Notes: generated by a model from the letters alone, not told the origin. 64,000 nucleotides of DNA from Candidatus Cloacimonadales bacterium (GCA_963665815.1 OY762463.1:3296001-3360000); one strand, 5' to 3'. Numbered from the stretch's first letter, positions 6,552 to 29,685 are shown. Numbers and translations: made by a program.

Positions 6552-6651
6552 ACGTAAATATTAGCTGAATATATGAACCCTGTCATATTTTTTATTGACA
6601 ATATGTCTTGTGAAAGACTTCATTGTATCAGTTATTATTGTGGAGGAATAT

Positions 6652-16400: not shown

Positions 16401-16731
16401 TCTAAAACACTATAATAAACTTAATAATATGGTCAGACGTCCAATTTTTCATTTAAAGATGAGTTTATTTGAGAAATTGATAGAATGCTTACTACAAACT
16501 AAAAAAATCGAAACCAAAATTTTCATTCTCTTCTATTTTTCTTCCATTAGAACACGAAGAAATCAAAAGAAATTTAATAATTATGTAAATAAGAAACTTC
16601 CAGAGGAAATGGCATTGATTGTAGAATACATATCTATGACTAACATTTCATTAAGCAAGAAAAGAAGCTATATACTAGAAAAACTGGGGGTAAATAAATC
16701 ATATAATCAAATGCAGTTGGAATTAGATTGA
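13426..16731 (+). CDS. PD-(D/E)xK-like nuclease fused to a NACHT (STAND) NTPase; candidate NLR-like anti-phage protein
   Basis: N-terminal DA..TNRGFLYQ, ETEDDI, QVK (Cap4/DUF4297-like); Walker A GGPGTGKS, Walker B FFFDGLDE, VVTSR, NPLLL, FTHKTFREYY; AT-rich and opposite in orientation to its neighbours. Confidence 0.85.
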   Translation: MMGSSIVLMKVDTDAVSTNRGFLYQYLITLNDWINIFLNQSRDIDIYCETEDDIFERNHKSSTVKFTQVKCFREGFSQNSPEIKKTLLNFFMLYLKYNGEYDGTFLFTTTAGLKKRAGKFLREWESIQYSKMDVIKKFSVPTKEILIKYIHSLLRKSKKEANSSWYNMVLNILENIRSDRFDDFIQRIRWKFLDIEPNEAIRKINEEIEKKIRKFPKHGDKTSIIFAKLLTEISFRSSKTRIDERVLNFGILDSIINGTIQEIEQSISKRIRRLMADKDDIVNHVKSIDKTITNLYDEFSEVFSSEFTFKEFVRQYKDCELRELSRVNFIGLHMPDGMKQNNEMSLEDIYVTPKFRIRRTKAINVQDMDDFLVEDDESDVDYSDLLNDDRNRVVILGGPGTGKSTLVKSLICNILNNKKNIINNTEIYKRIPFRIELRKYLAKKLKNDYNIIQYIVSELKCKYVKDVDERQITRIIEKHPTIFFFDGLDEIFDPMNKNDVRNDIENFTSISEHIYTVVTSRLAGYEEVKFSSDFTEINILDFERDKIEKYIKMWYHQFYREIEDTKRRDDEIKALNAEIETVDEELKSNPLLLSLIVLLFSNQKKIPKSKLQIYRSCTNTLVTKWDKNKKDMIIEIEQDLLNYKESILSNLAYWEYERLSSKSKLDVTHEQITRRIVQIILEDLKLVDDHNIAEKWANEFLTYIEKRSIYFDNEFTHKTFREYYTAKWIYTNFEKKHKISDRDKLINRYISKPFWFIVLELLFNMIDAGQSDNDILDELFKNHGVNEEAFPFIIYVLPKVTFISNTLVKSLVKKSLEITIESALNDSSKEVDNDSLHKKIFQQFRHIIVSSKFRTYLFDNMDSLFQEKIINKRYLQMLILFVFDLRILGEFENIEGLEKEADTFCKKYLTYIEDRSKNNEVIYWLIRIFKLIKITMNDIENYFLIYGADNLHQFYNSTFRSGLSYGCALRVIENFILNEENIKDLDKNLSILLKHYNKLNNMVRRPIFHLKMSLFEKLIECLLQTKKIETKIFILFYFSSIRTRRNQKKFNNYVNKKLPEEMALIVEYISMTNISLSKKRSYILEKLGVNKSYNQMQLELD

Positions 16732-16854: not shown

Positions 16855-18057
16855 TTACAAAACCTTCTTGCCTGCTATATAAACGGCTTTTATTGCATCT
16901 CTTTTACTGACAAAGATCAGGTCTGAAAGAAGCTCATGGACTTCCATGCTTCTCAGTTTCATAAAGAGGAAATCTGCCTGTTTACCCACTTCGATTGAGC
17001 CGATAATATCATCCTTACGGAGTGCTTTTGCTGCTCCCAGAGTTGAGTAATAGAATGGAGCGGAAAGCGGCATGGAGAAATTATTCTGTCTGTAGAGCAT
17101 CATTTTCATAATGTACGGCATGTAAAGGCTTGTTCCTGCGCCAACATCAGAAGCAAGACCGAATAACAGGTCATGTTTGTGTGCTTTAATAACAGGGAAT
17201 TCTCCTGATCGCAGGAAGAAATTTGAATCAGGACAATGGGCAATGGTTGTGCCTGTGTTGTGCAGAAGATCCATTTCGTAGTCAGTAAGGTGGATACAGT
17301 GTCCCATAATGGTTTTAGGGGTAAGAATTCCGCAGTCATTATAGACATCTGCATACGGTTTATTATACATGCTTTTCACCAGTTCTACTTCTTTCAGGTT
17401 TTCCGAAAGGTGGGTCTGGATGTATGCGTTATTTTTCTGTGCGTAATCACCGGTCATTTTCATGAGTTTTTCCGAGCAGACCGGGACAAATCTTGGAGTA
17501 AACACGTACTCCAGCAGAGGTGTTTTCTTATTCCATTTCTCGAACAACTCTATACTCTGTTCAACGGATGCATCTGTATCTTCCTGAAGGAATTCCGGAG
17601 AATTACAGTCCATCATAACTTTACCGATTATGGTACGGACACCGAGTGATTCAGCAATTCTGAAAGCAGCTTCCGTGGCAGTCTTAAACACGGATGTATA
17701 CACCACAGAGGTTGTTGTTCCGCAGTGGATCAGTTCATTAAAGAATCGAAGAGCAGTTTCCAGGGCATAGTTCTCATCTGCTGATTTTCGTTCTTCACTG
17801 AAGATGTATTTATTAAGCCAGTCGAGCAGGGCAGGCTCGTATTTACCTCTTACAAAATACTGGGAGAGGTGTACATGAGTATCTATAAAACCGGGCATAC
17901 ATACAAAGCTTGTATAATCGGTAAATTCCTGATCAGGATCAATGCTTTCTGATATATTTACAATTTCAGATTCATCTATAGTGATAAAGACGTTTTGCTT
18001 AAGTTCTGCAGAGTCTTTTGATAAAGGATTCAGTATATTAGTCTTGAAAATTTGCAT
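16855..18057 (-). CDS. guaD: Guanine deaminase (amidohydrolase)
   Basis: PGFIDTHVH, TPRF, QTHLSEN, HCPDSNFFL, SDVGAG. Confidence 0.92.
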   Translation of the reverse strand: MQIFKTNILNPLSKDSAELKQNVFITIDESEIVNISESIDPDQEFTDYTSFVCMPGFIDTHVHLSQYFVRGKYEPALLDWLNKYIFSEERKSADENYALETALRFFNELIHCGTTTSVVYTSVFKTATEAAFRIAESLGVRTIIGKVMMDCNSPEFLQEDTDASVEQSIELFEKWNKKTPLLEYVFTPRFVPVCSEKLMKMTGDYAQKNNAYIQTHLSENLKEVELVKSMYNKPYADVYNDCGILTPKTIMGHCIHLTDYEMDLLHNTGTTIAHCPDSNFFLRSGEFPVIKAHKHDLLFGLASDVGAGTSLYMPYIMKMMLYRQNNFSMPLSAPFYYSTLGAAKALRKDDIIGSIEVGKQADFLFMKLRSMEVHELLSDLIFVSKRDAIKAVYIAGKKVL

Positions 18058-18090
18058 AGCAATCCCCTGTAAGGTTAATATGATTTATTT

Positions 18091-19353
18091 TTAGTTTGTA
18101 TCCGGTAATCTGGAGATTTTTACTTTACTGATTTTTCTTCTTGTTACGTTAAGAATCTGAACTCTCCACCCGTTTATTGTGAGTTTTTGTCCTTGTGTAG
18201 GAATTCTTGATAGCTCATTAATGATCAATCCGGCTATAGTCTGATACTTGCTGCTTTCAGGCAGATCAAGATCATACAGATCGTTAAGATCATCAACATC
18301 TACATAACCTTGAACGATGTAAACTCCATCGCTTATAACTTCAATATCTTTTTCGATATCTTCATCATATTCGTCCTCAATTTCTCCAACAATTTCCTCG
18401 AGGATATCTTCAATAGTAACCAGACCGGCAGTTCCTCCATAAGAGTCTACAATAATGGTCATAGTGATTCTACGGGATTGCATTTCTCTGAGTAAGGTCA
18501 CAGCATCCATAGTTTCCGGTACGAAATAGGGAGCACGAACAAAGTCTTTAGCAGTCATTCCGGATGTATCTTTATGTTTAAGAAGATCATAAATGATCAG
18601 GATTCCAATTATCTTGTCCTGGGTGTCCTCATAGACTGGGAACCTGGTATAACCTTCTTCTCTGGCTATTTTAAGAATTTCCGGTACAGGAGTTGTATCT
18701 TCCAAAGCAATGAGATCAGTTCTGGGTATCATAACATTTCTTGCTTTAAGTTCGTTGAATTCAAGAGCTTCTACCAGCATTTCCCTTTGTTCTTCTTCCA
18801 GCTCTACTTCATCTTCATTTTCTGTAAGAAGATAATGGATATCGTCTCTGGTCAGCATAATATACTGATTTTCTTCAGGCAGCTTGAATCTTGAGGTCAG
18901 TGTTTTGTTAAGGATTGAGATTATAGCTACAAATGGTTTAAGCAGAATATAAAAGAATGTAACCAGGGAAAAAGTCTTTGGTACAAGTATATTTGCTCTT
19001 TCTCTATAGATTGATTTTGGGATAATCTCCGCAAAAAGAAGTATAGCAAAAGATGTTATCAGTGGTACAAGCTCTTTGTTGATCTTCACTGATGATTGAT
19101 AAATAAGCAGGTCTGCAAACAGCACACTTAAAGAAGAAACAATAACAATGGCTATATTGGTTCCAATAAGAGTTGTACCAAGCATTTTATCGGGTTTGTC
19201 CAGAAAATTAAGAATCCTTTTTTTAGTTTTGCTGTTTCTGGATTCTTTTTCAAGTTTAATTTTATCGAGTGATATCAGTCCGGTTTCCATTCCTGAGAAG
19301 AAACCAGATAAAAGGATGAAAAGAACAATCAATACAAAATATATTATTAGCAT
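18091..19353 (-). CDS. Hemolysin/CNNM family protein (DUF21 + CBS pair + CorC_HlyC)
   Basis: SGFFSGMET, AEIIPK, VMIPR, YTRFPVY, VDSYGGTAGLVTIEDILEEIVGEIEDE. Confidence 0.93.
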   Translation of the reverse strand: MLIIYFVLIVLFILLSGFFSGMETGLISLDKIKLEKESRNSKTKKRILNFLDKPDKMLGTTLIGTNIAIVIVSSLSVLFADLLIYQSSVKINKELVPLITSFAILLFAEIIPKSIYRERANILVPKTFSLVTFFYILLKPFVAIISILNKTLTSRFKLPEENQYIMLTRDDIHYLLTENEDEVELEEEQREMLVEALEFNELKARNVMIPRTDLIALEDTTPVPEILKIAREEGYTRFPVYEDTQDKIIGILIIYDLLKHKDTSGMTAKDFVRAPYFVPETMDAVTLLREMQSRRITMTIIVDSYGGTAGLVTIEDILEEIVGEIEDEYDEDIEKDIEVISDGVYIVQGYVDVDDLNDLYDLDLPESSKYQTIAGLIINELSRIPTQGQKLTINGWRVQILNVTRRKISKVKISRLPDTN

Positions 19354-19407
19354 TGTTCTTTCCGCTTATTTAAAAAATCAGCTTTTTTCCGGTCCATGAC
19401 TGTTTAA

Positions 19408-20475
19408 TCAGTTCTCCATTTTTTCGTTTTTATGAGCTAGCTTTAGTGCTTCAATAAACTCATCTATTTCGCCAACAAGAATTGCATCTAATTTATATGA
19501 TGTCAAATTTATTCTGTGATCAGTTACTCTGGATTGAGGAAAGTTGTATGTTCTTATTTTTGCAGAACGGTCACCTGTACCAACCTGAGATCTTCTCTGG
19601 GAAGATAATTCTGCTTCCTGCTTTGCAATCTCAATATCAAGAAGACGTGATCTGAGAACCTTCATAGCTTTAGCTTTGTTCTTAAGCTGAGACTTCTCGT
19701 CCTGACAGGTTACAACAGTGTTAGTCGGGATGTGAGTGATTCTGACAGCGGAGTCAGTTGTGTTCACACTCTGTCCACCGTGTCCGGAAGATCTGTATAC
19801 ATCGATTCTGAGATCGTTGTCACTTATTTCTATGTCAACATCATCTGCTTCAGGGAGTACTGCCACAGATATTGCTGAAGTGTGAATTCTGCCGCTTGAT
19901 TCAGTTTGTGGAACTCTCTGTACGCGATGAACACCGCTTTCGAAACGCATAATTCCATATACGTTTTCCCCTGACAGTGAAAATGATACTTCCTTTACTC
20001 CACCGATACCGGTTGAGTTGATAGAAAGAACCTGTTTCTTCCAGCCTTGCTTATCTGCAAAATATGAGTACATTCTGTATAAATCCGCAGCGAAAAGTGC
20101 AGCTTCATCTCCACCTGTTCCGGCTCTGATTTCCACAATCGCATCTTTTTCGTCATTAGGATCCTTAGGAGTCAATAGTTCCTTCAGCTCTTCAAGAAGC
20201 TTTTCTGCTTTTTCATGAAGTTCTTCGTTTTCGTCCTGAGCAAGTTTAATGAATTCTTTATCTGTTTCTTCCTGAATAATTTCTTTATTAGACTCAATTT
20301 CAGACTCTATTTCCTGAAGATCATTATAACATTTCATGATTTTTGCCAGTTCATTGTATCTTTTGGATAGTTTTCTGTATGAGCGCTGATCACTCATTTC
20401 AGAAGGATCCATTACTCTTTCGTGCAATTCTTTATATTCTGATTCAAGTCTTTCCATTTTATCTTTAGGAATCAT
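19408..20475 (-). CDS. prfA: Peptide chain release factor 1
   Basis: [28 protein letters not shown] motif, IRTYNFPQ; start moved to ATG 20475 after GGAG. Confidence 0.97.
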
Positions 20476-20488
20476 GAGTTCTCCGTGA

Positions 20489-21487
20489 TTAATTTTGTGC
20501 TTTCTGTTTCTTTGCCTGTTCGGCTTCAATAATTTCGTCGGTAAGTTCTCTTACATCTCCATGCTCAGAGTAATCAAGATCAAGTGCACATTTCAATGCA
20601 ACAAGAGCAACTTCAATCTGATCATCAGAAGGAGGCTGAGTAGTTATTCTCTGAATAGCCATTCCGGGAACTGTCATCAGTTTGACTAATGGATGATGTA
20701 TATTTTTACCTGATAGTTTAAGCACTTCGTAAGAAATACCGGAAACAAAAGGTATAAGCAGAATATGGTACATCCATCTGACAGCATAGTGTGGCAAAGA
20801 ACCAAGTACATGTCCCACAATGAAATCAACTATTGTAAATACAAATAATGATATCAGTAGAACAAAGAACATAAAGCTTGTTCCACATCTTGGGTGAAGA
20901 GTAGAATACTTCTGTACTTTTTCAGGATTTAATTTATCCTGCTTTTCATAAGCATATACACTTTTATGTTCAGCTCCATGGTATTGGAACAGACGTTTCA
21001 CATCTTTCATAAATGAAATCAGCCACACATAGGTGACAAAGAATACTATTCTGATAAATCCGGCAACAAGGTTGAAGTATAGGTTATGTTTGTCCAGATC
21101 CAGCAGCTTTGCAGTAAAATAAGGTACAAACCCAAATAAGAACATTGCCAGTGCAAATGCAACAACATAACTCAGGGCTTCCTCGGTTTTCTTAGCTTTA
21201 TCAGATTTCTTTTTTGTGTTTTCATCTTCATTGTCAAGTTCCCAGCGTTGAGCAGAAAAACCCAGTGTTCTCATTCCGAGTCCCATCATCTCAATAAGAG
21301 ATGCAAAACCTCTTACTAATGGTAGTCCCAGAAATTTATTTTTCTGTGTAATCGAGATGAATTCTTCCTGTTTGACTTCAATAGAATTGTCTGCTCTTCG
21401 GACAGCAGTTGCAATCTTTTCCGGTCCGCGCATCATGACGCCTTCTATAACAGCCTGACCGCCAACTGCAATTTCTTTTCTTTTCAT
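20489..21487 (-). CDS. DUF1385 domain membrane protein
   Basis: [26 protein letters not shown]; usual rpmE-DUF1385-prfA context. Confidence 0.93.
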
Positions 21488-21514
21488 TAGTATCCCTTGT
21501 TTCCCTCAGGAATT

Positions 21515-21550
21515 AAAAAAAACACCACATAACAAATGTTAAGTGGTGTT
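21515..21550 (-). terminator. Terminator-like hairpin after rpmE
   Basis: AACACCAC...GTGGTGTT stem with a T-run on the minus strand. Confidence 0.65.
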
Positions 21551-21564
21551 AAAAATATTAAAAG

Positions 21565-21774
21565 CTAGTTTTTGCTTTTAAGATTATATTTACGATTGAA
21601 TTTTTCAACTCTACCGGCAGTATCCATCATTTTTTGCTTACCGGTATAAAACGGGTGACATGCTGAACAAATATCAACTTTAAGTGTTGAACTTGTACTG
21701 CGTGTCTCAAAAGTGTTACCACATGAACAAGTAACAGTAATCTTTTCGTATTTAGGATGAGTCTTTTCTTTCAT
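21565..21774 (-). CDS. rpmE: 50S ribosomal protein L31 (Zn-ribbon type)
   Basis: [24 protein letters not shown]. Confidence 0.98.
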
Positions 21775-22147
21775 TCTGTTCTCCTCAGCTTTCCTAATTA
21801 AACTCTATTTTTCTTTTAAATTCTTAGTTTAATGTCTTCACATATAAATATATTAAGATTGTCATAATTTTCAGCAAGGTTTTACTGTCAAATAATTTTA
21901 TAAATTTCCTGTTTTTACCGAATTGTGTATTTTAGATGAAGCAGAAAATTTATTTTTACATAAGTTTGCGGAATGTATATTTATTATTGAATTTAAGCTC
22001 AATTTATGCTGTGTAATCTCAGGATAGAATGGTGTATTTTACTATAATACAGTCGTTTGGAAGTAATAAAAGTCTTGACTCCTGTCTTGGAGTATACTTA
22101 TACTGTCGCAGTATTTACCTTAACCGAAATTTTATTCAGGGGTCCTT

Positions 22148-22969
22148 ATGAAGAAATTTATATTACGTTTTCTATTGGCTGTGTTTATCATTTTTGCAGT
22201 CTCAATCTGGCCAGGCAATAACTGGCTGCAGATTTCTAATTACACATTTAAAAGTAAAAATGTTCCTCAGGAGTTCAATGGCTTCAAGATCGTGCAAATA
22301 TCTGATCTGCACTGCAAAGAGTTCGGGAAACACAATTCCAGACTGTTGAAACATGTGAAGAAACTGAAACCGGACATTATTGTACTTACAGGTGATGTAA
22401 TTGATTACAAAGTTATGAATATGGTAATGGTAGAATCTCTCGCGGAACAGCTCCCGAAGATTGCTCCGGTTTACTACATTACGGGAAATCATGAGCACTG
22501 GTCTGATCTTGTTAAAGATATGGAAATAATAATGAAAGATAATGATATAAACCTGATGGATAACGAAAGAAAGAAGATAAAACGTGATGGAGCTAAAATT
22601 TATTTGAGCGGTATTGCCGATCCGGAAGGTTTCAAATCCAATTCTGATTTTACTAAGAAACTCAAAAAACTCAGGAAGAACAGAGAATTAAATATATTGC
22701 TATCACATAGAGCGGAAAGATTTCAACAATACACTGAGACAGGTTATGATCTGGTTTTTGCAGGGCATGCACATGGTGGACAGTTCAGAATACCGTTTGG
22801 TGGTGGAATTGTTTCTCCCAATCAAGGTTATTTTCCAAAATACACAGATGGTATGCATGTGAAGGACGGTACATCCATGGTTATCAGTAGAGGACTGGGT
22901 AATTCTGTGATTCCATTCCGTGTGTTCAACAGACCTGAAATTGTTGTTGTTACTCTGGAGACAGAATAG
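22148..22969 (+). CDS. Metallophosphoesterase (YkuE/YaeI-like)
   Basis: SDLH, GD, GNHE, GHAHGGQ, SRGLG, RPEI; N-terminal TM helix. Confidence 0.92.
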   Translation: MKKFILRFLLAVFIIFAVSIWPGNNWLQISNYTFKSKNVPQEFNGFKIVQISDLHCKEFGKHNSRLLKHVKKLKPDIIVLTGDVIDYKVMNMVMVESLAEQLPKIAPVYYITGNHEHWSDLVKDMEIIMKDNDINLMDNERKKIKRDGAKIYLSGIADPEGFKSNSDFTKKLKKLRKNRELNILLSHRAERFQQYTETGYDLVFAGHAHGGQFRIPFGGGIVSPNQGYFPKYTDGMHVKDGTSMVISRGLGNSVIPFRVFNRPEIVVVTLETE

Positions 22970-23071
22970 GAATTAGGAATACTGTAATCAACTTTATGAT
23001 TTAAAGTTGACATCTAACCTGCTGAAAATTATTTAATAAATCCTAAAATAATCCGTTTACAGGAAGAAAAT

Positions 23072-24178
23072 TTGAATATACTGTATGTTTCCAATAAAAA
23101 GAAATGGGGTGGAATAGTAAGCTGGATGGAGAAAACTGCATTAAGTTTACAGAAGCGAGGTCATAAAGTCTGGATCTTTTCTCATCCTGATTCAGAATTT
23201 ACGAGAAAGGCATCTGATTCGCTGAATCTTATTCCATTCAGGATTGGTAACGAAAATAATCCGGTAATCTTGTTCAAACTTATAAAATTCATTAAAAGGA
23301 ATAATATACAAGTTCTTGTCTCAAATATAAAAAAAGAATCTGTTATATGTGCCAGAGCAGCAAAAAAGATGAATATAGTGCATATAAGAAGAATAGGCAA
23401 CGAAAAAGATCTTAATCATCCTGCAGTGCAGAGGCTATACAAAAGAAGTATGGTTGATGTTACGATTACACCATGTGAAGATGTGATAACCAAAGTTGTC
23501 GGAATGCATGATTTTGTGGGAAGTTCAGACTTTGCTTGTATTCATAACGGGAGAAATCCTCAGAGTTTTTCTGATAAGTTAGTTTGCTTGTATAAAAAGG
23601 AATTTTCTGTTCCCGAAGATGGTCTGATTCTTGGAGTTCTCTGTCAGCTTGTTATACCTAAGAACATTCCGGGAATTATTCGAACATTTAGAAATGTATT
23701 AAAAACTCATCCCGATACATATCTTGTTGTCGCAGGAAAGGGTCCCGAGGAAGACAATATCAGAAAGATGATTGCTGAGTATGATATTAAGGACAGATGT
23801 CTGATGATCGGGTTTGTAAAGGATACTCTAAAATTTTCTGCATTGACAGATATTGGAATACTGTTTTCTGATATAGAGGGATTTTCAAACTCTGTCGTGG
23901 AATTCATGTCAGTTGGAACACCTGTGATTTGTACTGATGTCGGGGGACAACGTGAGATTGTCAGGGATGGTCTTAATGGCTTTCTTGTTGAACCTGGTGA
24001 TGAACGAGCTCTGGAACAAAAAATTCTTGAACTGCTGAGTGATAAATCCAAACTTGACAGTATGGGGAAAAGAGCCTTTGATAATGTAAAAAATGAGTTT
24101 TCTGAAGATGGAATGATTAACAAAATAGAGCAGTTATATCAAAAAAAAATAAATAAAAAAGGGAAAATAAAGAGATAG
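23072..24178 (+). CDS. Glycosyltransferase family 4
   Basis: GG near N-terminus, IHNG, EGFSNSVVEFMSVGTPVICTDVGG, NGFLV; TTG start. Confidence 0.92.
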   Translation: MNILYVSNKKKWGGIVSWMEKTALSLQKRGHKVWIFSHPDSEFTRKASDSLNLIPFRIGNENNPVILFKLIKFIKRNNIQVLVSNIKKESVICARAAKKMNIVHIRRIGNEKDLNHPAVQRLYKRSMVDVTITPCEDVITKVVGMHDFVGSSDFACIHNGRNPQSFSDKLVCLYKKEFSVPEDGLILGVLCQLVIPKNIPGIIRTFRNVLKTHPDTYLVVAGKGPEEDNIRKMIAEYDIKDRCLMIGFVKDTLKFSALTDIGILFSDIEGFSNSVVEFMSVGTPVICTDVGGQREIVRDGLNGFLVEPGDERALEQKILELLSDKSKLDSMGKRAFDNVKNEFSEDGMINKIEQLYQKKINKKGKIKR

Positions 24179-24181
24179 AAT

Positions 24182-25174
24182 ATGAAAATTGGAATATTGA
24201 CATCATTGAATAAGTCTTATCATCATTTTGAGACGGTTTGTAAAGAACTGAAAATAGATTATGAACTCATTAACCTTGCTTCATCAAACTGGTTAGATAA
24301 TATCAGAAATTCAGATTGTGATGGTTTTATTTGTCGACCTTCATCCACATATCAGGAAAGAAAATCAATGTGGGATGAAAAGCTGTACGTTATTAATAAA
24401 CTGATGGGAAGACATATCTATCCTTCCTACGAAGAGCTCTTCATTTATGAGAACAAAAAAATGATGTCTTACTGGTTGAAACTGAATAATTTTCCACATG
24501 CCGATACATTTGTATTCTACTCAAAAAAAGAATACAAAGATTTCATTAAAAAAACCCGGTTTCCAATGGTTTTCAAAACAAGCATCGGAGCATCCGCAAA
24601 AGGAGTTCAGATTGTGAAAAGCAGAGGACAGGCAGCAGCAATAGGCAGGAAGGCTTTTGGCCCTATGGGGGCAAAGATGAGTCTTGGTTATACTCCACAA
24701 AAAACAGGGAAAGTTGTTAAATTGCCTTCATTCGGTACATCTCAAAGACATTTTGTAATACTTCAAAAGCATATTAATGTTAAGTGGGAATGGAGAATGA
24801 TTCGCATAGGTGAATCGTATTTCGGACATAAAAAGCTTCTTAAAGGTGATTTTGCCAGTGGAAGCGGAAAAGTTGGCTGGGGTGCTCCTCCGGAAGAGCT
24901 GCTTTATATGTTGAAAGATGTCTGTGATACCGGAAATTTCAAGTCTATGGCAATGGATGTGTTTGAGACAGAAAACGGTGAATTCTATATCAATGAGCTT
25001 CAATCCATTTTCGGATCAGTGAACAATTCTCAGATGTTTGTTGAGGGAAAACCGGGGAGATATCTTTTTGATGACAATAAGTTTAAGTTTGAAGAGGGTG
25101 AGTTTAATCATCATGGCAGCAATGTTCTGAGAATAAAACATTTTCTGCAGATTCTGGAAGGAGAAAAGAAGTGA
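24182..25174 (+). CDS. ATP-grasp (RimK-like) ligase
   Basis: ENK, FPMVFKTSIGASAKGV, QKHI..KWEWR, DFASGSG, AMDVF, YINE. Confidence 0.85.
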   Translation: MKIGILTSLNKSYHHFETVCKELKIDYELINLASSNWLDNIRNSDCDGFICRPSSTYQERKSMWDEKLYVINKLMGRHIYPSYEELFIYENKKMMSYWLKLNNFPHADTFVFYSKKEYKDFIKKTRFPMVFKTSIGASAKGVQIVKSRGQAAAIGRKAFGPMGAKMSLGYTPQKTGKVVKLPSFGTSQRHFVILQKHINVKWEWRMIRIGESYFGHKKLLKGDFASGSGKVGWGAPPEELLYMLKDVCDTGNFKSMAMDVFETENGEFYINELQSIFGSVNNSQMFVEGKPGRYLFDDNKFKFEEGEFNHHGSNVLRIKHFLQILEGEKK

Positions 25175-26103
25175 GAATCGGACTTATAAAACCGGATTAT
25201 CCTGATGAAAAAAGAGTAGCTCTTTTGCCGGAAGATATACAGGATTTTGAGAATGAACTTGTTGTAGAAACAGGATTTGGAGAATATCTGGATGTTTCTG
25301 ACGATGAATACATTGCTAAAGGCTGTATAATCAAAGGTCGGGGAGAAATCTACAGAGAATGTGATACAATCTTCAATCTAAAACTTACACAACCTTCTGA
25401 CTATGAGTATCTGCGTGAAAATCAGATGATTATAGGATGGACTCACCCAACCGGTTCCGGAACAGATTTCATGGAAAAACAAGCTATACCGAAGAAACTG
25501 ATTATAGTTGATCTGGATAATATCTTTCCATTTATATTTACCGCTGATCGAAAAATCTCTATAGATTTCCTTAAACCGAATTTCATCTGGAAAAACAGTT
25601 TTATGGCAGGATACAGTTCAACAATTCATGCTCTGGTATCCTTCGGGATGGTTCCTGATTCCAGTACTAAAGTTGCTGTGCTTTCGAGTGGTAATGTCGC
25701 ACAGGGTGCATATAATGCAATCACAGGCTATAATTGTGATGTAAGAATGTTTTACAGGAAAACCATGAATGAATTTTATGATTCCATCAAAGATTATAAT
25801 TTAATTATAAATGGAATAGAGATAGATTCCGATAATGAGCACATTATAACAAAGAAACAACTTGATACTTTGCGAAAGGGAACGTTTATAATTGATGCGG
25901 CCGCAGATGCCGGCAGAGCAGTAGAAGGTACTCATTACACTAGTATATCTAAGCCGGTGTACAAAGAAAATGGTTTGTACTTCTATGAAGTTAATAATTC
26001 TCCCTCAATTTTTTACAGGAAAAGCAGCAGTATAATCAGTAAAGTAATGTCTGACATCGTTTTCAGTAAAGATGTTAAGAGATACTGGGATCTTATCAGT
26101 TAA
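25171..26103 (+). CDS. N5-(carboxyethyl)ornithine synthase-like protein (AlaDH/PNT superfamily)
   Basis: EKRVALLP, ETGFG, GWTH, NSFMAG, SGNVAQGA, VNNSPS; GTG start overlapping the upstream stop. Confidence 0.8.
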   Translation: MRIGLIKPDYPDEKRVALLPEDIQDFENELVVETGFGEYLDVSDDEYIAKGCIIKGRGEIYRECDTIFNLKLTQPSDYEYLRENQMIIGWTHPTGSGTDFMEKQAIPKKLIIVDLDNIFPFIFTADRKISIDFLKPNFIWKNSFMAGYSSTIHALVSFGMVPDSSTKVAVLSSGNVAQGAYNAITGYNCDVRMFYRKTMNEFYDSIKDYNLIINGIEIDSDNEHIITKKQLDTLRKGTFIIDAAADAGRAVEGTHYTSISKPVYKENGLYFYEVNNSPSIFYRKSSSIISKVMSDIVFSKDVKRYWDLIS

Positions 26104-26290
26104 GGAATATTATTAATAAATCAAAAATAGGCATCCCCCCGAAACCTAAATACAATATATGTATAACTTATAATAAATAAAAGTTTTGAAACAGTAAATC
26201 AGTGGAAAATATGAATCAATGTAATAGCTTTGAACTAAGTATGATTGTTTTTAATTGATAGTATTTTCTCTTTTTTGTCCGTATAGTAAA

Positions 26291-26537
26291 TTTTCCCGCT
26301 AAGAAATCCTGAAGCCTTGGAAGGATTTTAGGGAGGATTTACGGTTTCAGCTTGCTGAAAATACATTTAGATGAAATTCACTAATTTCATCAACTACTCC
26401 CAATCTAAAAAAGAGTGCCTTTCTTTTGTTTCGTTTTCTTTGGCACCAAAGAAAATGAAGAGTGCATTTTTCTAAGAAATGTCTGCCAAAAATCCTTCCA
26501 ATCTTCTTTAAGTCAGATTTTCAAGAAAAAACGGGGA
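26291..26537. repeat. Inverted-repeat-bounded, hairpin-rich intergenic element (MITE-like or structured RNA)
   Basis: TTGGAAGGATTTT (26317-26329) / AAAATCCTTCCAA (26489-26501) enclosing three hairpins. Confidence 0.5.
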
Positions 26538-26563
26538 GATACCAACAAAAAAATCAAAAAACA

Positions 26564-26612
26564 TTGACAAAAATCCACTGAATCCTAACTGTATATACAT
26601 GGAATACACAGT
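26564..26612 (+). promoter_or_regulatory. Promoter -35 (TTGACA) plus putative YtrA/GntR operator palindrome
   Basis: TTGACA at 26564; imperfect palindrome ACTGTATATAC-ATG-GAATACACAGT at 26588-26612, just before the regulator start. Confidence 0.65.
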
Positions 26613-26624
26613 AAGGACTGATTA

Positions 26625-27002
26625 ATGAAGATTATGCTCTCAAATGCTTCAGTAGACGCTTTCTACGAGCAGATTTACAAGCAGATCGCTGCCATGATTA
26701 TGAATGGGCGGATTAAGCCTGATGTTATGCTTCCCTCAATTCGGAAGCTGGCTGTTGATCTTGGAGTGAGTGTTATCACAGTAAAAAAAGCTTATGAGAG
26801 ACTCGAGCTGAACGGCTTCATTAATACTATGGCAGGAAAAGGGTGTTTTGCTGCAAAACTGAATCCAGAGCAAATAGAAAATTCACGTAGAAAAATGATG
26901 GAAAAAGATATAAAACAAATCGTAAACAATGCTAAGAAATTCGGAATAAACATTGAAGAACTAAACGAAATGATTTGGGAAGAGCATATTAAGGAGGATT
27001 GA
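26625..27002 (+). CDS. GntR family (YtrA subfamily) transcriptional regulator
   Basis: YEQI, LPSIRKLA, VSVITVKKAY, GKGCF; short C-terminus; precedes ABC genes. Confidence 0.93.
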   Translation: MKIMLSNASVDAFYEQIYKQIAAMIMNGRIKPDVMLPSIRKLAVDLGVSVITVKKAYERLELNGFINTMAGKGCFAAKLNPEQIENSRRKMMEKDIKQIVNNAKKFGINIEELNEMIWEEHIKED

Positions 27003-27868
27003 TGTCAAACATTGTAGAAATAAATGGAGTATGTAAAAAGAGACGTAAATTCCTGATGGAAGATGTGAGTTTCTCACTTCCTTATGGCTATATTATGGGA
27101 TTGATAGGGGAGAACGGAGCGGGGAAAAGTACGCTAATCCATCTGCTTACGAACCTTCTTATTCCCGACTCAGGCACAATCAAGATATTCGGGAAAGAGT
27201 ATGCCGAATGTGAGGAAGAGATCAAAGAAGACATCGGATTTGTGTATGATACTCCATATCTGCAGGATTCGTACAGACTGCGTGATCTCAAGAATATGAT
27301 TTCTATTTTCTACAGGAATTGGGATGACAGTTTATACACTAAATACATGAAAATGTTCAATCTGGATGAGAAAGATGTTTTTGGTAAGTTATCCAAAGGT
27401 AACCAGATGAGGTTCTGCATTGTACTGGCACTTTCTCACAGACCTAAACTCCTGCTGATGGACGAACCGACTGCAGGGCTTGATCCGGTGATACGTCTTG
27501 AACTGCTGGAGCTGCTTTCTGAGATTATTGCAACGGAAGAATGCTCTATCATTTATTCATCGCATATAACGTCGGATCTGGATGATAGAGCAGATTACAT
27601 CGGGCTGATAAGGGAAGGCAGAATGATTCTGTATTCGGACAGGGAGTCAATAGCGGAACAATATGCAATTGTGAAGGGTGATCAGAACCTTATGCGATAC
27701 ATGAACCACTTTGCAGGCTATAGAGAGAAAAACGGATTGATAGAAGCTCTTACTTTCAATAAAGAGTTCCTGATGAAATCACAGAAGGATATTGTTGTTG
27801 AACCTGTTAATTTACAGCAGCTCATGTTCTTCACCAGTGGTAACAGATACAATAAAAACAGGATATAG
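27002..27868 (+). CDS. ABC transporter ATP-binding protein (YtrB-like)
   Basis: GENGAGKS, LSKG signature, MDEPTAGLDP, SSH; ATG overlaps the upstream TGA. Confidence 0.95.
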   Translation: MSNIVEINGVCKKRRKFLMEDVSFSLPYGYIMGLIGENGAGKSTLIHLLTNLLIPDSGTIKIFGKEYAECEEEIKEDIGFVYDTPYLQDSYRLRDLKNMISIFYRNWDDSLYTKYMKMFNLDEKDVFGKLSKGNQMRFCIVLALSHRPKLLLMDEPTAGLDPVIRLELLELLSEIIATEECSIIYSSHITSDLDDRADYIGLIREGRMILYSDRESIAEQYAIVKGDQNLMRYMNHFAGYREKNGLIEALTFNKEFLMKSQKDIVVEPVNLQQLMFFTSGNRYNKNRI

Positions 27869-27873
27869 CTCTT

Positions 27874-28587
27874 ATGGATTTGTTTAAAAAACTCTTGAAA
27901 ATGAACTGGATCATGTTGAGAAGGGAGAAACCACAGTATTACATTCTTATTATTATAACAATGCCTGTAATGTATCTGTACTACAAGGTTACTCGAGATA
28001 TTTACCTGAGTCTTGCCTGTACAATATCACTGTTACTGGCTTCTTCTGCTGTGCAATTCCATAAAATCATTATGCTGAAGATAGGGTTGTTTGCTACATT
28101 ACCGATTAAGAGAGGAAAGCTGATGCTGAATCAGATTGCTGCCATATCACTTCTGACCATGCTGCATCTGGTGTTTATTCTGGGAACGTTTACTGTTTAC
28201 TATACAAAATTCTCTGACGTTGATGTTAACTGGCTTTATACTGCACTTTATACGATTCTGGGTGTTGCAGTCAGTATAATCTATGGCAGTTTTTTCCTGC
28301 TTGTAATAAATACGGGAGTAAAGAAGCATCCGTTTGATATTGTGTTCCTGCTCATAATAATGGTGCAGTACCTGTTTCAAAGACCTCTGATAGACTGTTT
28401 TCAGGTGTTTATACCTGTAGTAAAGCAGTTGATTATGGGTGGGGATTATCCATTGACCACTCTCAGGCTGACAATTGCCGGAGGATTTCTTCTCGGGGTT
28501 GGAGTTATGATATACTTCCTCGTGGAGCTTTACGGTAGATTTCAGAAAATGGATATTTCGACGGGAGTAAGAGAATTATTTTACTAA
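27874..28587 (+). CDS. Putative ABC-2 type permease
   Basis: About six hydrophobic segments, TLPIKRG motif, operon position. Confidence 0.7.
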   Translation: MDLFKKLLKMNWIMLRREKPQYYILIIITMPVMYLYYKVTRDIYLSLACTISLLLASSAVQFHKIIMLKIGLFATLPIKRGKLMLNQIAAISLLTMLHLVFILGTFTVYYTKFSDVDVNWLYTALYTILGVAVSIIYGSFFLLVINTGVKKHPFDIVFLLIIMVQYLFQRPLIDCFQVFIPVVKQLIMGGDYPLTTLRLTIAGGFLLGVGVMIYFLVELYGRFQKMDISTGVRELFY

Positions 28588-28603
28588 TTCAGAGGTGTGA
28601 AAT

Positions 28604-29326
28604 ATGAAAAAGACAATGCAGTATACGTGGAATGAGATAAAAGCATCACGGTTATTCTATGCTTTGGGTGGATATCTGCTGATTTTCTGGGTATCTAATA
28701 AAGAATACAATCCTGAAGAGTTGCTGGCAGTGTTGACAGTTTTCATGACAGTTGTTCCCCTGCTGGCTGTTGCCAATACTGCAAAGAGCATGCAGTCGAA
28801 TATCTGTAGAACCTATGTAGCAACAAGTCTGACGAGAAAGGGCTATCTACGATCAAAGTTCATGATACCCCTGATAATCACGGTTTCCTTTTTCCTGATA
28901 ATACTGGGACTCGGAATGTATGCTTCCAATGCTGATCAAGCTGTTAAAAAGAGTCTCCTTACAAACTTTTCCGGATTAGTGATACTGGGGTTCAGCCTTA
29001 TCACTATTCTTGTGGGATTCAATACTGTATTTGTGCTGATGGCAGAACATTTACGATTTGGTCTGGATGTTATAATTGCGATTGCAGTAAACCTTACTAT
29101 TATACTCTCTGCTCCTCGTCTTATTGCTTTTCTAGGCTTTGGCAGAACCTTCCCTGAACATGGAATCAATTCAATTGAAAGTATAACAGGAGTTGATTGG
29201 ATTATTTACGATATTGCTCTGGTAAAGACTTTCTCAGGATTTATTGCAGTGACGGCAGTAACGGCAATTATTTCTTTTCTGCTCTATAAACTGGGGTTGC
29301 GGGTGTTTATGAAGAAGGATTTGTAG
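28604..29326 (+). CDS. Putative ABC-2 type permease
   Basis: About six hydrophobic segments, LTRKGYLRSKF, C-terminal FMKKDL. Confidence 0.7.
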   Translation: MKKTMQYTWNEIKASRLFYALGGYLLIFWVSNKEYNPEELLAVLTVFMTVVPLLAVANTAKSMQSNICRTYVATSLTRKGYLRSKFMIPLIITVSFFLIILGLGMYASNADQAVKKSLLTNFSGLVILGFSLITILVGFNTVFVLMAEHLRFGLDVIIAIAVNLTIILSAPRLIAFLGFGRTFPEHGINSIESITGVDWIIYDIALVKTFSGFIAVTAVTAIISFLLYKLGLRVFMKKDL

Positions 29327-29424
29327 GGATAATGAAGAAAACCATTTTATGTATTATCGGAACTGAAGTGTTCATTAGGCACTTTTGTGATAGTTTTTGT
29401 TGGTTGTGGAATTTGGCTTACAAG

Positions 29425-29685
29425 CTATTTTACATTACCTCCGGATTTCTCCAGAAGATCGAGCTTTTTCAGCCGATCAATCAAAGTAATGATATCAACC
29501 TCAATTCCATCCTCATAGAGTGTGGCTATAGCCCGAAATATAAAACGGTGTGTGCTCTTGTAAAAATGCTTCTCTTCAACAAACTCCAATGCTCTGGAAC
29601 ATGACTGCTCATCAAGCATCATTGCAGAAAGCACAGCCGATTCCGCATCAATATCCTGAGGTAAAACCCTTCTCATACTTCCCAT
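29425..29685 (-). pseudogene. dnaB: Truncated replicative helicase DnaB, N-terminal fragment
   Basis: PQDIDAESAVLSAMML, HFYKSTHRFIFRAI, VDIITL, LEKSGG, then stop at 86 aa; no helicase domain follows. Confidence 0.8.

Follow-up and report, generated by a model that had tools for sequence, protein, structure and literature searches.

A candidate surface-glycan cassette joining a glycosyltransferase, a predicted ATP-grasp ligase and a CEOS-like dehydrogenase

In the window analysed here (the whole stretch of 64,000 nucleotides), three adjacent genes encode a glycosyltransferase, an ATP-grasp ligase and a CEOS-like dehydrogenase. We give about even chances to the view that they form a swappable LPS or surface-glycan cassette, which, with the chemistry as we infer it, would join an acidic sugar to N-(carboxyethyl)-ornithine or -lysine through an amide bond. 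The host of the cassette is a flagellated diderm from a small phylum of FCB type, probably Cloacimonadota. Opine decoration of a glycan had been put forward in the initial annotation of this DNA. It is favoured by the CEOS identity of the third gene, by the conservation of the ligase/CEOS pair and by the glycan loci in which this pair lies, while conservation of the exact trio did not bear it out.

Organization of the three genes

The components of the trio are as follows.

23072..24178, plus strand: GT4 glycosyltransferase, 368 aa, TTG start
24182..25174, plus strand: predicted ATP-grasp amide ligase of an unnamed family (here AGR), 330 aa, ATG start
25171..26103, plus strand: CEOS-like NAD(P)H-dependent dehydrogenase, predicted to form opines, 310 aa, GTG start

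The first two genes are separated by 3 bp (24179-24181), and the stop of the ligase gene overlaps the start of the CEOS-like gene in the motif GTGA (25171-25174), through which these two are translationally coupled. The tight, co-directional arrangement that had been described is thus present exactly as claimed in its reading frames, gap and overlap. The short gap and the shared strand indicate one transcript for all three genes. Purine-rich, SD-like stretches lie upstream of the GT4 start and of the CEOS-like start. The gene call in the collection gives the glycosyltransferase 350 aa, against 368 aa from the TTG; in favour of the TTG start at 23072, a homologue from the same genus aligns from residue 1. 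Promoter-like sites (18 found, 21 expected from shuffles) and terminator-like sites (1 found, 3.1 expected) showed no enrichment between 21400 and 26700 and are uninformative, and an Rfam scan of 21400-27000 gave no match.

The glycosyltransferase

The domain matches of the three proteins agree with the initial annotation. The first product matched Pfam Glycos_transf_1 in its C-domain (PF00534, 1.2e-35) and Glyco_transf_4 in its N-domain (PF13439, 5e-08), and by these domains it is classed as a retaining GT4 glycosyltransferase of GT-B type. Its best NCBIfam match was BshA, the N-acetylglucosaminyl-malate synthase (TIGR03999, 2.4e-34), and BshA was also the best match in the PDB (5d00, 5.8e-25). 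The two share the GT-B GT4 fold. However, the score lies below the BshA equivalog cut-off (118.9 vs 273.7 bits), and orthologues of the window protein occur in MsbA/heptosyltransferase loci and not among bacillithiol genes. A BshA or bacillithiol reading was rejected on this score and this context.

The family is rare. Only 17 homologues were found at E<=1e-20 in a collection of 5.8 billion proteins, and orthologues are present in 20 of 232 genomes of the same phylum. Within the phylum they sit in LPS-core-type loci: an MsbA-like ABC protein, GT9 heptosyltransferases or Wzy_C (WaaL-like) adjoin the orthologue in 9 of the 10 neighbourhoods fetched. The gene immediately upstream is variable and codes for a pyruvyl transferase, a glycerophosphotransferase or a methyltransferase. 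The genome under study has five scattered GT9 heptosyltransferase genes, none of them near the cassette. The target of the cassette would be a lipid-linked surface glycan, most likely LPS core or a glycan attached to LPS core.

The ATP-grasp ligase

AGR gave only weak matches to ATP-grasp profiles (GARS_A, RimK, LysX). No Pfam or NCBIfam family was reached above cut-off, and the same held for Pfam across 21 members of the family. The scores fell below the RimK/LysX cut-offs (29.3 vs 143.4 bits for TIGR00768, 23.8 vs 275.6 bits for TIGR02144). Source databases call the relatives only "hypothetical" or "ATP-grasp domain protein". The AF2 model (pLDDT 88) matched ArgX, LysX, Ddl, RimK and synapsin in Foldseek with probability 1.00; the nearest solved folds were those of ArgX, LysX, RimK and Ddl (TM 0.55-0.76, 11-17% identity, Foldseek E 2e-16 to 1e-13). 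The model places AGR in the ATP-grasp superfamily, with a predicted three-domain fold. The columns invariant among 21 orthologues include K132, E203-W204-R205, D259, E262 and N271-E272.

Kinship with TupA-like ATP-grasps (PF14305) or with PF14397 was considered and rejected, none being detectable by hhalign against one member of each. For PF14305 there was no Pfam match and the hhalign probability was 1.5%, and for PF14397 no relation was found. When viral contigs were searched with the alignment of 21 AGR sequences, and hence for the AGR family alone, no relative was returned. We regard AGR as a new ATP-grasp family, whose modelled fold resembles those of LysX, ArgX and RimK.

The CEOS-like dehydrogenase

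The third protein contains AlaDh_PNT_N (PF05222, 4.4e-14) and AlaDh_PNT_C (PF01262, 1e-14) within 310 aa, and the listed members of its family have 309-322 aa. Aligned over 99% of its length, it shares 50% identity with RefSeq-annotated CEOS from Lactococcus plasmids; its identity to enterococcal, lactococcal and Vagococcus copies, four of five of which are annotated as CEOS, is 46.6-52%; these comparisons were made with annotated copies and not with the sequence of the purified lactococcal enzyme. JGI and NCBI give the name CEOS to homologues at 57-70% identity. Identity to ald genes is 23-25%, and the score against the alanine dehydrogenase equivalog TIGR00518 lies far below its cut-off (55.5 vs 391.85 bits). 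These values rule out an alanine dehydrogenase or transhydrogenase, and the earlier suggestion of a CEOS-like enzyme in place of a plain alanine dehydrogenase stands. By sequence, the third gene belongs to the CEOS clade (EC 1.5.1.24) of the AlaDH/PNT superfamily.

Residues R15, K71 and H92 are invariant in 17 CEOS-like family members and fall, in the alignment, on R, K and H of the solved Thermus alanine dehydrogenase; we take them to be the pyruvate site. On a quick tree the window protein groups with 53 CEOS-like rows. Association with a ligase is scattered over this tree of 54 CEOS rows (4 changes, a value as low in 121 of 500 shuffles), and this speaks against a separate clade of "glycan CEOS".

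The chromosomal slot

Comparison with G001, the genome of a sister species in the same genus, places the trio in a slot with conserved flanks.

22968..26562, no strand: the 3.6 kb that vary within a conserved chromosomal slot, with flanks shared with G001
26131..26536, no strand: copy of a dispersed non-coding repeat, about 420 bp, a boundary feature at the right cassette edge

G001 aligns to window positions 16856-22967 (87%) and 26563-29326 (86%), while the 6.9 kb separating these blocks in G001 are unrelated to the window. Here G001 has genes for a methyltransferase, a DegT aminotransferase, an NDP-sugar 4,6-dehydratase, a nucleotidyltransferase, a GT4 (357 aa), a GT4-like protein (415 aa) and a 248-aa protein without assigned function. 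By its genes this allele is an NDP-amino-sugar cassette with a glycosyltransferase homologous to that of the window. The two slot glycosyltransferases are 38% identical overall; identity is 55% in residues 1-60, 32% in residues 171-340 and 70% in residues 341-368, a pattern which fits one acceptor and different donors.

The repeat gave 48 matches in its own genome; 16 of these are other copies that cover at least 360 bases of the query at 82-89% identity. G001 carries many copies, none at the cassette slot. The repeat had no Rfam match, and a search for terminal inverted repeats found only internal ones. The trio is most likely a strain-specific, exchangeable cassette in a slot whose content is swapped.

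How widespread is the arrangement?

Outside this genome the exact trio probably occurs in one metagenome contig of a near relative only. There the homologues of all three proteins each lie on a contig of 50,656 bp, which we presume to be the same one. Identity to these nearest relatives is 68% for the glycosyltransferase, against 85% and 88% for the ligase and the CEOS-like protein. The trio is absent from the 54 genome loci surveyed. The initial annotation had named two findings that would refute its idea, a plain alanine dehydrogenase as third enzyme and a linkage that is not conserved, and neither check overturns it: the three genes together are probably confined to this genome and one near relative, but the ATP-grasp/CEOS pair is conserved much more widely. 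Of the 66 loci fetched, 24 have an AGR orthologue (38-57% identical) no more than 300 bp from that of CEOS. One further locus has a single gene between them, 28 have no AGR despite enough flank, and in 13 of the 66 the flanks were insufficient to judge. The pairing exceeds chance. CEOS comes first in 20 of the 24 adjacent pairs, while in the window the ligase is first.

Carriers of the pair are Bacteroidota, Cloacimonadota, Bacillota (Senegalia), three Methanogenium genomes and a "Patescibacteria" bin. A gene-neighbourhood survey of CEOS homologues, as had been proposed for checking the idea, came out positive: the pair stands mostly within glycan-assembly loci with glycosyltransferases, Wzx/Wzy and UDP-sugar dehydrogenases. 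By our reading of the annotations, CEOS lies among Wzx, Wzy, GT4/GT2, Wzz, CapD-like, Bac_transf, DegT or NeuB genes in 23 of 54 genome loci; for example, the order Wzx-CEOS-AGR-Wzy-GT4-GT4 is found in L002-L005 and L009. Five of the 18 AGR-bearing genome loci (L010, L012, L014, L025 and L034) have UDP-sugar 6-dehydrogenase genes at distances of up to about 5.5 kb, and L034 also carries a glucuronyl C5-epimerase. In L015 an arginase, that is, a source of ornithine, is encoded directly 3′ of CEOS. The closest pair in the gene order of the window (L071 and L078; AGR 57%, CEOS 68-69% identity) is flanked by MsbA-like ABC, TagD and Glyphos_transf genes on one side and by a GT9 heptosyltransferase gene on the other.

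Where AGR is absent, CEOS often stands beside "sugar-transfer associated" ATP-grasp genes of PF14397 (L011, L015, L023, L024). The three Methanogenium loci have the CEOS-AGR pair and no glycan gene within their annotated flanks, and in many Firmicutes loci CEOS, with or without a ligase, has no glycan genes nearby. The CEOS loci of Clostridium, Lactobacillales and Thermotogota have neither ligase nor glycan genes, which indicates that CEOS itself is not glycan-specific. No gene for a small LysW-like carrier was found beside the pair in the loci mapped.

Proposed pathway

In the pathway that we propose, the CEOS-like enzyme would join L-ornithine or L-lysine, through its side-chain amine, to pyruvate in an NAD(P)H-dependent reductive condensation, giving N5-(1-carboxyethyl)-ornithine or N6-(1-carboxyethyl)-lysine. 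The GT4 would transfer a sugar, probably a hexuronic acid, onto the glycan acceptor. The ATP-grasp ligase would then turn the sugar carboxylate into an acyl phosphate and couple it, through an amide bond, to the opine amino acid at its alpha-amine. The analysis itself shows the families of the three proteins, the conserved pairing of ligase and CEOS within glycan loci, the LPS-core surroundings of the glycosyltransferase family and the swapped content of the slot; which substrates and uronate acceptor are used, how the steps follow one another and what they yield is inferred. The cassette has no uronic-acid gene; two UDP-sugar dehydrogenase genes about 480 kb away in the same genome are a possible supply.

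Taking all genomes together, AGR and CEOS may form a horizontally mobile module, spread from Bacteroidota to methanogenic archaea, that decorates the acidic sugars of LPS, capsules or archaeal surface glycans with N-(1-carboxyethyl)-ornithine or -lysine, and that in this genome would act on the LPS core as a plug-in cassette for switching serotype. For this wider proposal we put the chances somewhat short of even.

Comparison with known systems

The characterised lactococcal CEOS (ceo, EC 1.5.1.24, Lactococcus lactis) acts on free amino acids, and we know of no partner ligase or glycan context for it. It shares with the window protein the two-domain AlaDH/PNT architecture and a length of about 310 aa. 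In contrast, the window enzyme, whose activity is a prediction, is coupled to a dedicated ATP-grasp ligase, as in 24 of the 66 loci.

LysX, ArgX and RimK ligate an amino acid, through its alpha-amine, to an activated carboxylate and act on protein or peptide carboxylates. They are the nearest solved folds of AGR, with weak sequence matches to TIGR00768 and TIGR02144, but AGR is only 11-17% identical to them, has no LysW-type carrier nearby and is found in the context of glycan assembly and not of lysine or arginine biosynthesis.

To our knowledge, TupA-like enzymes are the only proven type of uronate amidoligase. According to the accessible part of the source, the C-terminal domain of Cj1438 from the HS:2 capsule of Campylobacter jejuni is an ATP-grasp which amidates the C6 carboxylate of glycan-bound GlcA (PMC11800379). 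This domain resembles AGR as an ATP-grasp of a glycan locus, and its type of reaction, as described there, is the one proposed for AGR. However, it is described as fused to a GT2 and as using phospho-amines (serinol-P, ethanolamine-P) and not an amino acid, and its TupA-like sequence has no detectable relation to AGR (the hhalign value of 1.5% given above).

The proposed end product, an opine amino acid in amide linkage to a uronic acid, has a counterpart in the O14 antigen of Providencia rustigianii, where N-epsilon-(1-carboxyethyl)-L-lysine is amide-linked to GalA, and a Treponema glycoconjugate contains an ornithine amide (both from the accessible part of PMC10609480). The Providencia antigen is known as chemistry only, and from an unrelated organism. 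Our literature search found no paper tying CEOS, ATP-grasp or any other genes to opine-bearing glycans, and a phrase search for carboxyethyl ornithine synthase returned no paper.

Alternative explanations

The glycan target may be the same and the order or chemistry different. The ligase would then first amide-link plain ornithine or lysine (or another amine) to the sugar carboxylate, and the CEOS-like enzyme would carboxyethylate the free side-chain amine of the residue already bound to the glycan; or else the ligase would use a carboxylate of the opine to N-acylate an amino sugar. Plain lysine and ornithine amides of uronic acids exist, as does N-acyl alanopine on Qui4N (PMC10609480, accessible part), and Cj1438C acts on the glycan-bound sugar, after its transfer (PMC11800379, likewise in part). 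Both the position of the ligase gene 5′ of CEOS in the window and the G001 cassette of the same slot, which would make an amino sugar, agree with such a route. The predominance of CEOS-first order (20 of 24 adjacent pairs) does not, nor does the L015 arginase, which points to a pool of free ornithine, and the window cassette lacks an amino-sugar gene. The use of free amino acids by the lactococcal enzyme also argues against this route, which we consider rather unlikely.

Lower still is the probability that we assign to a soluble small-molecule pathway, in which ligase and CEOS would make a free opine amide or dipeptide and a BshA-like glycosyltransferase would glycosylate a small acceptor. The product would then serve as osmolyte, metal-binding compound or thiol-like cofactor and have nothing to do with surface glycans. 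The best named relatives of the glycosyltransferase, BshA, do glycosylate malate; however, the score stays far under the BshA equivalog cut-off (118.9 vs 273.7 bits), and 9 of 10 orthologue neighbourhoods are LPS-core-type. The Methanogenium pairs without glycan genes, and the metabolic or plasmid contexts of CEOS in lactic acid bacteria and clostridia, would suit this pathway, but most AGR-CEOS pairs lie within Wzx/Wzy or core-type loci, the G001 allele is a classical NDP-sugar and glycosyltransferase cassette, and the cassette of the window has neither exporter nor regulator. Finally, the adjacency itself could be functionally meaningless, if the pair arrived by horizontal transfer beside a resident core glycosyltransferase and acts on something unrelated, such as a protein or peptide carboxylate in the manner of LysX, ArgX and RimK. 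This we hold to be very unlikely. The lower conservation of the glycosyltransferase than of the pair in the nearest relative (68% vs 85% and 88%), the absence of the trio from 54 genome loci and the dispersed repeat at the cassette edge are in its favour, as are the closest folds of the ligase, which modify protein C-termini. Yet a gap of only 3 bp and a common strand point to a single transcript, no LysW-like small carrier gene was found beside the pair in the loci mapped, and elsewhere the pair is repeatedly flanked by other glycosyltransferases.

Significance

Amide linkage of opine-type amino acids to uronic acids has been part of O-antigen chemistry for decades. The AGR-CEOS pair inside glycan loci offers testable candidate genes for this chemically known decoration. 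Cultured carriers of the AGR family, namely Tenacibaculum soleae, Oceanotoga teriensis and Methanogenium marinum, make the idea accessible to bench experiments. If the proposed decoration is true, these would be the first genes for opine-amino-acid decoration of glycans, and CEOS would gain a physiological role. The swapping of cassettes in one slot also shows a compact way of diversifying surface antigens in a phylum that has been little studied.

Organization of the Cassette

The three genes are co-directional, and both the ORF list and the sequence agree exactly with the initial annotation, including the 3-bp spacing between the first two genes and the GTGA start/stop overlap between the second and third:

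23072-24178, + strand, GT4 glycosyltransferase, 368 aa, TTG start
24182-25174, + strand, ATP-grasp protein (family named AGR here), 330 aa, ATG start
25171-26103, + strand, protein like N5-(carboxyethyl)ornithine synthase (CEOS), 310 aa, GTG start

A metallophosphoesterase gene (22148-22969) lies upstream across a 100-bp gap, and 520 bp of non-coding DNA separates the trio from a GntR/ABC-transporter operon on its 3' side. The genome, complete at 3.96 Mb, encodes FlgI, flagellin, Por_Secre_tail and FadL and is that of a flagellated diderm that has T9SS-type sorting domains.

Identity of the Three Enzymes

Both AlaDH/PNT domains were identified in the third protein by Pfam. It is not a plain alanine dehydrogenase. 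It misses the alanine dehydrogenase equivalog (55.5 bits against a cut-off of 391.85); JGI and NCBI label relatives that share 57-70% identity with it as N5-(carboxyethyl)ornithine synthase; and in plasmid records it shares 50% identity over 99% of its length with proteins annotated by RefSeq as CEOS in Lactococcus lactis and L. cremoris, and 52% with the Vagococcus one, against 23-25% at most with true ald genes. R15, K71 and H92, which we take to be the pyruvate-binding and catalytic residues, are invariant among 17 family members and line up with R, K and H of the Thermus alanine dehydrogenase. The CEOS-like family assignment of the initial annotation is thus upheld.

The second protein gives only weak ATP-grasp matches (GARS_A, 19.4 bits; RimK family, 29.3 bits). 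An AlphaFold model built from 21 orthologues (pLDDT 88) has a clear ATP-grasp fold, nearest to ArgX, LysX, RimK and D-Ala-D-Ala ligases (TM 0.55-0.76, 11-17% identity). Because none of the 21 orthologues reaches a Pfam cut-off, the fold is recognized only at such low identity and public names are generic, AGR is an undescribed ATP-grasp family. Its 447 relatives (E<=1e-10) are called 'hypothetical', 'ATP-grasp domain protein' or 'glutathione synthase/RimK-type', and their Atlas clusters are likewise unnamed. By family cut-offs, and by hhalign against one TupA-like and one PF14397 member, it falls outside the RimK/LysX, TupA-like and PF14397 families, and a viral scan with the family found no relative.

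The first protein is a GT4 (GT-B) glycosyltransferase (Glycos_transf_1, 1.2e-35), whose best named relative, BshA, stays far under its equivalog cut-off (118.9 against 273.7 bits); 17 relatives at E<=1e-20 occur in the whole protein collection. The public gene call is a 350-aa protein starting at 23126. The true start is probably 18 codons earlier, at the TTG of 23072, because the N-terminus read from there is shared with the glycosyltransferase of the same-genus sister species (genome G001).

Orthologues of this glycosyltransferase occur in 20 of 232 species genomes of the phylum. Ten neighbourhoods were fetched within the phylum. In seven of them an MsbA-like ABC exporter, GT9 heptosyltransferases or both occur along with DUF6165, GT2 and GT4 genes; another two contain a Wzy_C (O-antigen-ligase-type) gene, and one (G005) has neither. 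The immediate upstream neighbour differs by locus: polysaccharide pyruvyl transferase (L104, L106, L108), glycerophosphotransferase (L107), cytidylyltransferase with a gene of unknown function (L105), methyltransferase (L112) or MsbA itself (L111). A protein of about 415 aa, matching only the Glyco_transf_4 N-domain, is encoded 3' of the orthologue in L105, L111, L112 and the G001 locus (L070); in the window the ligase stands in its place.

Conservation of the Trio and of the Pair

How far is this arrangement kept in other genomes? A search with the CEOS alignment yielded 59 genome loci, 54 of them true orthologues (>=45% identity); L055-L059 were left out as PntA-like. Twelve metagenome loci were added, and AGR was tallied by tblastn over the 66 orthologue loci, in which related genomes are non-independent samples. 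The co-occurrence of CEOS and ATP-grasp genes anticipated in the initial annotation was found, an AGR orthologue lying within 300 bp of CEOS at 24 of the 66 loci (18 genome, 6 metagenome). At one more, L013, a single gene intervenes. Another 28 loci, whose two flanks each reach 1.1 kb or more, lack AGR, and 13 were too short for judgement. CEOS precedes AGR in 20 of the 24 adjacent pairs; the window's order recurs in L007, L071 and L078, and in L074 the genes are convergent. The hosts are Bacteroidales, Cloacimonadota, one Senegalia (Bacillota), a bin labelled Patescibacteria and three Methanogenium genomes, and in a quick tree the association is scattered over the CEOS phylogeny rather than confined to one clade.

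The claimed three-gene linkage therefore stands for the AGR-CEOS pair and falls for the trio, since the CEOS loci show only weak partial GT4 matches. The whole trio probably occurs in one near relative, as the best relatives of the glycosyltransferase (68%), AGR (85%) and CEOS (88%) each lie on a 50,656-bp contig.

Genomic Context of CEOS

Neighbouring ORFs, called in the related loci by a simple longest-ORF script, were clustered and annotated with Pfam, five of the 12 metagenome loci being included. By manual reading of the Pfam tables, CEOS lies inside classical glycan-assembly loci in 23 of 54 genome loci (L001-L012, L014-L016, L018, L019, L021-L025, L034). For example, L002-L005 and L009 have the arrangement Wzx-CEOS-AGR-Wzy-GT4-GT4. 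Five of the 18 AGR-bearing genome loci (L010, L012, L014, L025, L034) have UDP-sugar 6-dehydrogenase genes within about 5.5 kb, and L034 additionally has a glucuronyl C5-epimerase. The closest same-order pairs, L071 and L078, carry MsbA, TagD-like, Glyphos_transf, AGR, CEOS and GT9 genes and are the same kind of locus as those of the glycosyltransferase orthologues. An asparagine-synthase-like gene lies directly 5' of CEOS in L001 and L077, and in L015 an adjoining 3' arginase hints at ornithine as the CEOS substrate. In loci that lack AGR, the neighbours of CEOS are often PF14397 'sugar-transfer associated' or other ATP-grasp genes (L011, L015, L021, L023, L024).

The glycan setting is not exclusive. 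No glycan gene turned up in the annotated flanks of the three Methanogenium pairs, Clostridium loci (L026-L031, L043-L045, L048) carry a GntR/TrkA_C regulator and fructose-bisphosphatase, and Lactobacillales and Thermotogota loci have housekeeping neighbours. In four Paludibacteraceae-type loci (L036-L039) the context is radical SAM and ADP-ribosyl-related; the conserved order is Tpt1/KptA RNA 2'-phosphotransferase, a 133-aa protein, CEOS, a 386-aa protein without Pfam match and a radical SAM enzyme, with ADP-ribosylglycohydrolase and a RhuM-like gene nearby.

Some loci have further peculiarities. In L015 (4982-9810) a DarT-Macro (DarTG-type) toxin-antitoxin pair sits in the glycan locus just 5' of ATPgrasp_ST-CEOS-arginase. 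In L034 (8001-10900) two CEOS-like genes surround the ligase, the second very divergent and on a long branch. A D-Ala-D-Ala-ligase-like ATP-grasp protein (421 aa) and a 408-aa AlaDh_PNT_N-only protein precede CEOS in L011 (5427-7923), with three PF14397 ATP-grasp genes 3' of it, which suggests a locus for more elaborate amino-acid decoration.

A Chromosomal Slot with Exchanged Content

CEOS was not found in seven same-family genomes searched, G001 among them, and a search of 40 relatives gave a single good orthologue (41%). The alignment of G001 with the window, at 86-87% nucleotide identity, breaks off after 22967 and resumes at 26563. Between these flanks G001 has 6.9 kb of different DNA, coding for a methyltransferase, a DegT aminotransferase, an NDP-sugar 4,6-dehydratase, a nucleotidyltransferase, a GT4 (357 aa), a GT4-like protein and an unknown protein. 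Over its full length this GT4 shares 38% identity with the enzyme encoded in the window, with 55% at residues 1-60, 32% at 171-340 and 70% at 341-368. Since the N-domain of GT-B enzymes usually binds the acceptor, the regional pattern is suggestive of two enzymes that may share one acceptor and use different donors. Elsewhere in the window's own genome are five scattered GT9 genes and, about 480 kb from the cassette, two UDP-sugar dehydrogenase genes.

The cassette is bordered on its right by one copy of a non-coding repeat, roughly 420 bp long (26131-26536), that is dispersed in the genome and has no Rfam match. It has 48 matches in its own genome, 16 being other copies that cover at least 360 query bases at 82-89% identity; G001 has many copies and none at this slot. 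Its inverted repeats are internal only, among them a hairpin of 14 bp at 26430-26459. Two possible explanations are a MITE-like element and a recombination hotspot.

One NTPase gene stands on each side of the cassette region, and the defence-type character of both hints at a region of genome plasticity:

13426-16731, + strand, NACHT/STAND NTPase, 1101 aa
29815-30996, - strand, KAP-family P-loop NTPase, weak QatA-like match

The GntR/ABC module (26625-29604) is kept in G001; it consists of a small regulator and an ATPase whose best NCBIfam matches, below cut-off, are the staphylococcal PmtR/PmtA phenol-soluble-modulin exporter, followed by three ORFs without family match. For three large ORFs of the window, Pfam gives no family at E<=1e-6, and the second adjoins a FadL-type outer-membrane protein and T9SS sorting-tail proteins:

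6595-9171, + strand, 858 aa
41127-45131, - strand, 1334 aa
60694-62115, + strand, 473 aa

Proposed Function

All functional statements here are drawn from homology and gene context. From its family assignment and conserved residues, CEOS would condense pyruvate with ornithine or lysine, using NAD(P)H, to N5-(1-carboxyethyl)-ornithine or N6-(1-carboxyethyl)-lysine. The GT4 enzyme, judged by family context, would transfer a sugar onto a core-type glycan linked to lipid; a uronic acid as donor is a guess. AGR would convert a carboxylate to the acyl phosphate and amidate it with the α-amine of the opine. This step is proposed because of general ATP-grasp chemistry, the analogy with Cj1438C, which amidates glycan-bound GlcA (PMC11800379), and the occurrence of such amides in O-antigens (PMC10609480).

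There are rival readings. The steps might run in reverse order, or an amino sugar might be N-acylated, which we consider rather unlikely; a soluble small-molecule product has a somewhat smaller chance. Least probable is a functionally unrelated juxtaposition, for example with a protein carboxylate as the target. In the literature searched, no paper links opine-bearing glycans to CEOS or to any other gene; one genomics paper tabulates the CEOS KO under 'cell surface structure' (PMC8875376).

Each component of the trio resembles a known enzyme: the third the CEOS of Lactococcus, the second, in its proposed role, the ATP-grasp uronate amidation of Campylobacter, and the first the GT4 core transferases. 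Together CEOS, GT4 and AGR may form a pathway of opine-amide glycan decoration, a prediction to which we give about an even chance.
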